Below are positions 55,953-56,344 of a DNA stretch of 64,000 nucleotides, one piece after another (within the stretch, counting starts at the first letter, position 1; each line of letters begins with the position of its first letter). The position numbers and the translations under genes are program-made. Under the pieces are notes generated by a model. It was not told the DNA's origin. It ran no database searches and saw only the letters and a list, made by a program, of their open reading frames with translations. Source of the stretch: Escherichia phage WPEC5. The stretch lies in sequence record PV654397.1; one strand, 5' to 3'.

Positions 55953-56315
55953 ATCACCAACTTTAATTAAAAAAAATGGATGGTGACGCTTTTAAACGCC
56001 GCTGTTAATTCAGCTTTATAACCACCCGTTTTAACTTGCCTTTCGGCTACCTTGACGTGGGGCGTACAGGCTACTAAAAGCAACTACTGTAAACATATTT
56101 CCACGCCTTACCCTTTTAAATAAAAATCCATCCGGTTTTCCAGTTTGGTGAAGGATAGTCACCTCTAGTTTAAACCTGCTAGTCAAGTAATAATTGCCTA
56201 TCGTCCAATTATCAAACCCGTCTAGGTTAACATTCACCACTTCCTAGAGTACCAGAGATCTTGTTCTGGATTGCATCGACGTAACTTACACCATATACGT
56301 CTGATTGTGGAATTC
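55953..56315 (-). other. promoter-driven ORF-free region (candidate ncRNA)
   Basis: consensus promoter at 56316-56344 points into about 360 bp with no credible ORF; locally GC-richer. Confidence 0.45.
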
Positions 56316-56340
56316 ATTATATCAGTACTGAACTATTTAG

Positions 56341-56344
<4 letters not shown>
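56316..56344 (-). promoter_or_regulatory. sigma70-consensus promoter TTGACT-N17-TATAAT
   Basis: minus-strand read TTGACTAAATAGTTCAGTACTGATATAAT. Confidence 0.6.

Follow-up and report, generated by a model that had tools for sequence, protein, structure and literature searches.

Within the window, by which we mean the whole 64,000-nucleotide (nt) stretch of Escherichia phage WPEC5 DNA analyzed here (sequence record PV654397.1), positions 55,953 to 56,344 probably hold two adjacent and independently mobile non-coding RNA genes, referred to below as modules A and B. In the explanation that we favor, and that we regard as the probable one while leaving real room for doubt, module A belongs to a family of phage RNAs that take a slot in transfer RNA (tRNA) arrays, are processed and stable, and act in trans via invariant loops, and module B is a second RNA that carries a transcription terminator. 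Judged by comparison of its copies, module A appears to represent a previously unannotated family, outside the known ones, of RNAs about 190 nt long whose ten helices form, among other elements, three pseudoknots.

Two modules that occur independently

A BLAST comparison with 50,697 phage records divides the stretch into the two modules (Table 1). The initial annotation had proposed a single stable RNA here; the region does appear to be one of non-coding RNA, but it consists of two RNA modules that occur independently of each other. Module A is present in about 75 phage records at 72-93% identity and, in addition, in metagenomic contigs. Its lineages are Asteriusvirus, Alcyoneusvirus, Bragavirus, Novosibvirus, the Stephanstirmvirinae phage KP13-16, and the Aeromonas-phage genera Ishigurovirus and Ceceduovirus. 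It is found alone, at 84-93% identity, in the T4-like Bragavirus phages Pm5461, PM2, and SdyM_006, in Morganella phage Mm5 (Straboviridae; the record gives no genus), and in the T5-like Novosibvirus phages Proteus phage 1, phage 2, and M4H10_20, and more distant copies are carried by Klebsiella phage KP13-16 and the Aeromonas phages. The Klebsiella Alcyoneusvirus phages have both A and B, with 81% identity. Moreover, in Muenster and in the metagenomic contig L047 an insert of about 55 nt, with its own TTGAAC-N17-TATAAT promoter, lies between A and B.

The 500 bases around the locus match EC.P1, ph0011, 121Q, PBECO4, and others at 97-99.6% identity, and the window appears to be Asteriusvirus-type jumbo coliphage DNA. 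Within Asteriusvirus the locus is an insertion/deletion hot spot. The window and 121Q carry A and B, and JNE01 carries B only, with the same promoter sequence fused straight to it. EJP2 carries A only, followed directly by tRNA-Ser, and both B and the 125-amino-acid (aa) gene that lies downstream in the window are absent. Neither module is complete in phAPEC6, where the same promoter and the first 36 nt of A are followed by the homologous gene.

Searches of IMG/VR and metagenomes gave further contigs with module A (L010, L037, L044, L047, L090, and L102); the matches listed in the metagenome pattern scan are mostly chance ones. Two looser pattern scans of IMG/VR added one probable distant relative at 4374-4548 of L252 (IMG/VR UViG_3300031087_000527, 259 kb, an uncultivated jumbo phage), directly after tRNA-Leu(UAG). 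A wider search for module B, made as one scan, returned a chance match only.

The predicted fold of module A is kept by compensatory changes

The ten helices of module A were read from the sequences (Table 1). A covariance model, R1, was built from twelve close copies with the seven nested helices only and was then used to align 21 distinct copies; it scores 244 bits in the window copy and 64-243 bits in the 20 others. In the 21-copy alignment, 96.6% of 1071 cells hold standard pairs, compared with 23.6-40.1% in controls where the partners were slid by 1-3 columns. Changes on both sides are seen in 37 of the 53 pairs (6-13 pairs in the slid controls), and the covariation score is 0.449, as against 0.045-0.064 with slid partners. 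None of 500 shuffles reached any of the five pairing measures. Since R1 left out P1, PKa, and PK2, the alignment was not fitted to these three pseudoknot helices, which covary nonetheless among the 21 copies: CG13/GC5 in P1, CG15/AU3/GC3 in PKa, and GC9/AU7/UA1 and UA16/CG5 in PK2. Moreover, G-U pairs are frequent (GU16/GC5, UG20/CG1, and UG16). On the opposite strand these would be C-A mismatches, and the orientation of the RNA is therefore fixed as that of the minus strand.

Part of P2, together with P4, P5, PKa, and P7, is also recovered by RNAalifold from a structure-blind alignment made with MAFFT only, and the program adds a covarying fifth pair to PKa. It also offers an alternative in which the 3′ strand of P6 pairs with the 5′ strand of P8; this was rejected, as copy L102a breaks that pairing and keeps P6. 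Outside the helices, the segments CGGG (after P4), GACGAUA (the P5 loop), UUGAC, GAGGU, and AUGG are invariant or nearly so.

These results suggest that module A is a structured non-coding RNA gene, whose helices are kept by compensatory change and by strand-specific G-U pairs. Its conservation in unrelated lineages, its position on the tRNA strand, the compensatory changes in its helices, and the lack of a conserved open reading frame (ORF) all support this reading. It is very unlikely indeed that what has been conserved is instead an element at the DNA level, such as a target of homing endonucleases, a recombination cassette, or a degenerate tRNA pseudogene. Homing endonuclease genes do lie near (HNH at 54523-55065 in the window, a segD-like gene in SdyM_006, and HNH genes in Muenster), and an insertion/deletion hot spot in Asteriusvirus would fit such an element. 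However, 37 compensated pairs out of 53, together with strand-specific G-U pairs, are predicted by an RNA fold and not by a protein-binding DNA site. In addition, neither ARAGORN nor the Rfam tRNA model detects a tRNA-like signal in A or B, and lineages without common flanks have retained the 193-nt length and the invariant loops.

Table 1. Positions in the window of the promoter, the two RNA modules, the adjoining reading frames, and the module A helices
Feature	Position	Strand	Description
Sigma-70-type extended -10 promoter	56316..56344	-	-35 TTGACT 56344-56339; TG 56324-56323; -10 TATAAT 56321-56316
Module A	56122..56314	-	Predicted 193-nt structured RNA gene (covariance model R1 and comparative pairing)
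Module B	55969..56110	-	Predicted second structured RNA, about 142 nt (separate occurrence, fold, modest covariation)
Intrinsic-terminator-like end of B	55969..56027	-	Stem GGGTGGT 56027-56021 with ACCATCC 55984-55978, then A and T8 55976-55969
69-aa GTG ORF	56031..56240	-	Judged spurious; crosses the boundary between A and B
125-aa gene	55575..55952	-	Downstream of the RNA genes, not part of them
P1	56310-56307 with 56240-56237	-	Pseudoknot with P4; pairs into the P4 loop
P2	56305-56296 with 56283-56275	-	
P3	56269-56265 with 56256-56252	-	
P4	56248-56243 with 56226-56221	-	
P5	56213-56206 with 56196-56189	-	Loop GACGAUA
PKa	56188-56184 with 56178-56174	-	
P6	56182-56179 with 56168-56165	-	Pseudoknot with PKa
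P7	56163-56159 with 56151-56147	-	
PK2	56156-56153 with 56129-56126	-	P7 loop with 3′ tail
P8	56143-56140 with 56135-56132	-	

Module A in tRNA arrays

Without exception, module A is encoded on the tRNA strand, and most lineages carry it in a space between two tRNA genes that it takes up exactly. In Bragavirus, Novosibvirus, KP13-16, the Aeromonas phages, L102, and L252, it starts 0-3 nt past the encoded CCA of the upstream tRNA. In locus coordinates, tRNA-Gly of Pm5461 extends to 3000, module A occupies 3001-3199, and tRNA-Asp begins at 3200, an order shared by SdyM_006 and PM2. Proteus phage 1 has tRNA-Leu up to 2999, A from 3001, and tRNA-Ser at 3199 (again in locus coordinates). The flanking genes are those for tRNA-Leu and tRNA-Ser in KP13-16 and for tRNA-Pro and tRNA-Thr in the Aeromonas phages, and the metagenomic contig L102 carries a tRNA flanked by two diverged copies of A. 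What precedes module A in the window, Muenster, L044, and EJP2 is a promoter and not a tRNA. ARAGORN finds 4 tRNAs in the whole window, none of them within 55953-56344.

The promoter and the reading frames of the locus

In this part of the window the genes and tRNAs are carried by the minus strand. The sequence TTGACT-N17-TATAAT, which the initial annotation had placed at 56316-56344, is there as described and lies on the minus strand, with 11 of 12 consensus matches and a 17-nt spacer that holds the TG. It reads into about 350 bases that are richer in G+C and free of a conserved ORF; the enrichment, likewise noticed in the initial annotation, amounts to 0.405-0.41 at 56000-56299 vs 0.29-0.35 on the flanks. 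Promoter-like sites overall are not enriched in 52000-60000 (48 found vs 42 expected). Only six sites in that interval have at least 11 of 12 matches, all on the minus (gene-bearing) strand, and for a longer motif, TTGAC-N10-AGTACTGNTATAAT, 4 matches with no more than 3 mismatches were found vs 0.25 expected. Other promoters are found at the corresponding position in Muenster, L044, and EJP2. Directly before tRNA-Ser(GCU) (55460-55549), at 55556-55584 on the minus strand, the window has another member of the family to which the promoter at 56316-56344 belongs, TGGACA-17-TATAAT with TG.

Three minus-strand ORFs, of 69 (the GTG ORF in Table 1), 38, and 27 aa, are all that 55953-56315 contains. 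A coding role for the region, with one small protein (such as the 69-aa product) or several, is scarcely credible. An ORF is present, and several GenBank records give a "hypothetical protein" at this place. However, no frame is conserved in module A, where stops interrupt every forward frame of all 21 copies, and the lengths of the copies (184-203 nt) differ by numbers that are not multiples of three. Moreover, AGGA stands just 1 nt ahead of the GTG start, and the relatives of the 69-aa ORF elsewhere are only ORFs that overlap A, B, or a tRNA gene. The initial annotation had already taken this ORF to be spurious. We reach the same judgment because the ORF crosses two modules that occur separately, because the Muenster insert splits these modules, and because no frame stays open across the copies.

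Module B, its terminator, and the downstream gene

In module B, a long 5′ hairpin, whose asymmetric internal loop includes GGAAAUAU, is followed by a GCC-GAAA-GGC hairpin and then by a three-way junction at the 3′ end, which also serves as the terminator. Its minimum free energy (MFE) z-score is -2.96. In 7 sequences of low diversity, and with a structure taken from the window sequence itself, 98% of the cells are paired and 5 of 40 pairs have changed on both sides, vs none in slid controls. Covariation support for a conserved fold of module B is thus modest as judged from these sequences. The module has a promoter of its own in Klebsiella relatives; Muenster and the contig L047 each carry one. 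Of module B, Kuravirus phages have just the 5′ hairpin, which lies there in an intergenic region, shows compensatory changes, and adjoins a tRNA-like element shared with N4-like phages. This region, 650 nt at about 1230-1880 of the locus from Kuravirus vB-EcoP-XT32 (L006), seems to be packed with RNA modules; the B-like hairpin is at 1574-1627, and the element of about 75 nt has 88-98% identity with N4-like phages and is given as "tRNA-OTHER" or "tRNA-Undet" in some records. A "hypothetical protein" is annotated on the opposite strand of the region.

The hairpin and T-run that had been noted just before the 125-aa gene are indeed present, in the form of a 7-bp stem with a branched loop, followed by A and T8. 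The stem, with 5 G-C and 1 G-U pairs, closes two small hairpins to form the three-way junction, and the T8 is 17 nt upstream of the ATG at 55952. A simple terminator scan missed this terminator because its loop is branched. The stem is invariant in 6 sequences, and both inner hairpins show compensatory changes between Escherichia and Klebsiella phages. Between the T-run (55976-55969) and the ATG no promoter-like site was found. Since there is no intervening promoter, and since phAPEC6 uses the same promoter for its homologous gene, transcription probably reads through the B terminator into the 125-aa gene.

The missing promoter, the arrangement in phAPEC6, where the same promoter stands directly before the homologous gene, and the position of the B terminator just upstream of the start codon are also what would be expected if A and B formed a long 5′ leader, riboswitch- or attenuator-like, that controls the 125-aa gene via the terminator. 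We nevertheless consider a leader quite unlikely. Most lineages have tRNA genes on both sides of A and no protein gene following it, and in EJP2 A runs straight into tRNA-Ser, with B and the gene missing. In addition, B is preceded by a promoter of its own in Muenster and L047, and no riboswitch or leader model in Rfam matches. The comparative data contradict each of the leader, DNA-element, and small-protein readings.

Searches in RNA families, cellular genomes, and the literature

The scans that the initial annotation had proposed (Rfam and ARAGORN, for transfer-messenger RNA [tmRNA], tRNA-like, and 6S-like RNAs) place no known family over A or B. At gathering score, Rfam 15 gives no match to either module in the window; at E up to 10 there is none to them in 55300-57400, and six divergent copies of A, taken from five other loci, likewise give none at E up to 1. 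ARAGORN reports nothing over A or B in the window, and the tRNA and tmRNA models of Rfam (RF00005, RF00023, and RF04321) report nothing over them there or in 5 other loci. Hence 6S RNA, RNase P RNA, riboswitches, ribozymes, ROOL/GOLLD, YrlA, and other Rfam families were rejected as identities of A or B for want of a match. Two further candidates were dropped on inspection by eye: a CsrB-like sponge with GGA motifs, as the number of these motifs is about that expected by chance, and a Shine-Dalgarno mimic, as GAGGU is mostly buried in P7.

Neither the 5,426 complete E. coli genomes nor the 72,556 plasmids (PLSDB) searched with BLAST gave a match to module A. A core pattern of the module gave 100 matches in 185,579 bacterial and archaeal genomes, none of which is a real copy as judged by inspection or the covariance model. 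As far as these searches reach, module A appears to be confined to phages and, among them, to virulent ones. A full-text literature search found no description of the module A RNA, and in the GenBank records listed the stretch is unannotated or given as a "hypothetical protein," never as RNA.

Relation to known phage RNAs

To our knowledge, small stable RNAs of phage tRNA clusters have been known for fifty years, in the form of the T4 species 1 and 2 RNAs, and their role has never been explained. These two RNAs (rnaC and rnaD; 139 and 119 nt, role unknown) are encoded immediately behind a tRNA gene and on the strand of the tRNAs, in the order tRNA-Arg, rnaD, rnaC, with the homing endonuclease gene segB adjoining. 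Both are stable RNAs derived from a tRNA precursor, and the formation of species 1 depends on RNase P. Bragavirus, Novosibvirus, and other phages have module A in a comparable position, and the two RNAs in the window are in tandem, as are rnaD and rnaC in T4.

The analogy with T4 drawn in the initial annotation therefore holds for the position next to tRNAs but not for sequence. With blastn, the best similarity to rnaC or rnaD spans 21 nt at E 0.13; nhmmer, run in either direction between A or B and the T4 RNAs, finds nothing at the right place; and R1 has no match in the T4 tRNA region. BLAST with rnaC gave 751 records, and the matches listed include no Asteriusvirus and are all from T4-type enterobacterial phages. 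Because there is no sequence homology, the analogy rests on position and presumed processing and not on family membership. The RNAs also differ in build: rnaC has paired ends and a T-arm-like GGGUUCGAAUCCC hairpin, no such hairpin is present in A or B, and module A is larger and pseudoknotted. The 21-nt similarity between B and rnaC (GGAAAUAU..UUU) was considered as a possible common hairpin and dropped, as nhmmer finds nothing and the MFE fold of rnaC uses those bases differently. By analogy, module A would fall into the same broad category as the T4 species 1 and 2 RNAs, yet it appears to be a member of no known family.

ROOL and GOLLD, which are typically found in phages and prophages near tRNA genes, resemble module A in being RNAs of complex fold and unknown function. 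They are about 3-4 times longer, come mostly from Bacillota-type hosts, and are known to self-assemble into multimers; both are in Rfam, and their models give no match here. A cryo-electron microscopy paper on ROOL and GOLLD mentions phages and tRNA arrays (PMC12286853). With tmRNA and viral tRNA-like structures module A shares a series of H-type pseudoknots, one of which uses the 3′ terminal segment. However, it has no mimic of an acceptor or T-arm, no conserved 3′ CCA, and no reading frame for a tag.

The nearest published precedent for a structured RNA that abuts phage tRNAs is the theta ribozyme. Theta ribozymes are minimal versions of the hepatitis delta virus (HDV)-like fold located beside tRNAs of gut Caudoviricetes and have been proposed to process tRNA 3′ trailers; they are phage-specific, pseudoknotted, and nearly absent from bacterial genomes (PMC10879173). 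They lack the P4 domain and have the nested double pseudoknot of the HDV type, their hosts are Bacteroidota and Bacillota, and the tRNAs concerned are mostly without an encoded CCA (PMC10879173). In most lineages module A likewise lies immediately downstream of a phage tRNA (in the window, a promoter takes that place). It differs from theta in its length of about 190 nt, in the order of its helices, in the CCA of the upstream tRNAs, and in its occurrence in phages of Gammaproteobacteria, and no HDV-type model of Rfam matches it. In the order supported by covariation, the strands follow each other as P1, the P2 hairpin, the P3 hairpin, P4, P1′, P4′, and then three more units, an order that does not fit the HDV-like P1-P2-P3-P3′-P1′-(P4)-P2′.

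Module A might be a self-cleaving or otherwise catalytic RNA that helps to mature the tRNA array, for example by cleavage at its 5′ edge that releases the upstream tRNA's 3′ end, as has been proposed for theta ribozymes. This is the main rival explanation, though an unlikely one. In its favor, module A starts 0-3 nt past the upstream CCA in at least seven lineages, a compact fold with several pseudoknots and invariant junction nucleotides is typical of ribozymes, and ribozymes adjacent to phage tRNAs have a precedent (PMC10879173). However, no Rfam ribozyme matches the window or five divergent copies even at E up to 1-10, and the strand order is unlike the nested double pseudoknot of HDV. CCA is already encoded in the genes of the upstream tRNAs, spacers this short are usual anywhere within a tRNA array, and in the window, Muenster, L044, and EJP2 there is a promoter upstream in place of a tRNA. 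Moreover, self-cleavage would leave a 2′,3′-cyclic phosphate, which, judging from tRNA maturation in E. coli, would block aminoacylation.

Neighboring genes and other elements of the tRNA arrays

A fifth, aberrant tRNA-like gene is located at 57287-57365 on the minus strand of the window. It scores 32.6 bits with the Rfam tRNA model (gathering score 29) and is not called by ARAGORN; its D-arm region is cut to 4 nt, and its variable region is long. Immediately after the tRNA-Asn/tRNA-Met pair, a 180-aa ORF with CxxC and HH motifs extends over 54523-55065 (minus strand), and its homologue is an annotated HNH endonuclease of Muenster. SdyM_006 has a segD-like endonuclease gene in the equivalent tRNA region. 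Three tandem paralogous ORFs of 54 aa, each starting with MTHEEWM, lie on the minus strand at 56776-57262 (56776..56940, 56937..57101, and 57098..57262) with overlapping stop and start codons; further paralogues are found at 58926..59096 and in locus L037.

In the tRNA array of KP13-16 (L007), Rfam gives two sub-threshold matches, one to YrlA (Y RNA-like; 39.7 bits vs a gathering score of 69) at 973-1079 and one to a tmRNA model (31.6 bits) at 1656-1731. Other unannotated gaps of 150-500 nt in the KP13-16 and Aeromonas phage arrays may hold more RNAs. In Morganella phage vB_Mm5 (L018), the four tRNAs at 597-915 are on the opposite strand in GenBank from that given by ARAGORN, which is probably a strand error in the annotation. 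L252 carries at 1096-1169 a tRNA with the anticodon CUA (amber suppressor; labeled tRNA-Pyl by ARAGORN).

A model for the two RNAs

In the explanation that we favor, a tRNA-array transcript would be cut by the tRNA-maturing enzymes of the host, as in the maturation of E. coli tRNAs, and module A would be excised in the process. The 5′ end of A would be made by an RNase E-type cut in the AU-rich linker right after the upstream CCA (AAUU, AAAA, or CUUA) and its 3′ end by RNase P, which would cut where the next tRNA begins. The window copy would instead be made from its own promoter together with B, with transcription of the minus strand running from the promoter at 56344-56316 to the terminator at 55976-55969. 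Module A would then accumulate as a stable RNA and act in trans via GACGAUA, CGGG, UUGAC, GAGGU, and AUGG. Its invariant loops and three pseudoknots suggest a specific partner. This might, speculatively, be a protein or another molecule linked to tRNA or translation, or to host defense that targets them; such a role is suggested because A is tied to tRNA arrays in unrelated virulent phages. An accessory function would fit, since the module is dispensable in deletion variants and patchily distributed. The nearby homing endonuclease genes may offer a route for spread between co-infecting phages. Module B would be another small RNA, of narrow distribution, and would provide the terminator as well.

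Several points weigh against this explanation. The processing steps and the binding role in trans are inferences. The counts for its nested helices are favored, because they were made on an alignment fitted to the model, and the cell counts overstate the number of independent events, since the 21 copies represent only about seven clades. Transcription starting 7-8 nt past the -10 hexamer would begin at C56309 or A56308, inside P1, and the promoter-driven copy might therefore miss part of the first pseudoknot, or else a longer transcript would be processed. The natural deletion variants indicate that A and B are dispensable for plaque formation. Finally, when the ORFs lying up to 3 kb from A in 11 loci were compared all against all with blastp, no protein family proved common to the neighborhoods across lineages; the only ORFs shared there are spurious ones that overlap A, B, or tRNAs.

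Implications

Several deposited genomes carry spurious "hypothetical proteins" over what appears to be the module A RNA. The natural variants of Asteriusvirus (A and B, A, B, or neither) are isogenic-like, and the function of the modules is therefore directly testable. Three pseudoknots and invariant junction nucleotides within 190 nt suggest a specific three-dimensional structure and so a specific partner or a specific chemistry. Module A is common to jumbo myoviruses and to T4-like, T5-like, and rV5-like phages, and its predicted fold is far more elaborate than the precedent of the T4 species 1 and 2 RNAs. A bolder possibility, about which we are doubtful, is that module A founds a new class, either a self-processing ribozyme or a decoy in the tRNA pathway, that spreads as an RNA gene cassette among unrelated virulent phages. 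If so, the decoy would neutralize a host factor, which might be an anticodon nuclease or another tRNA-targeting defense, or a factor of tRNA maturation or translation.

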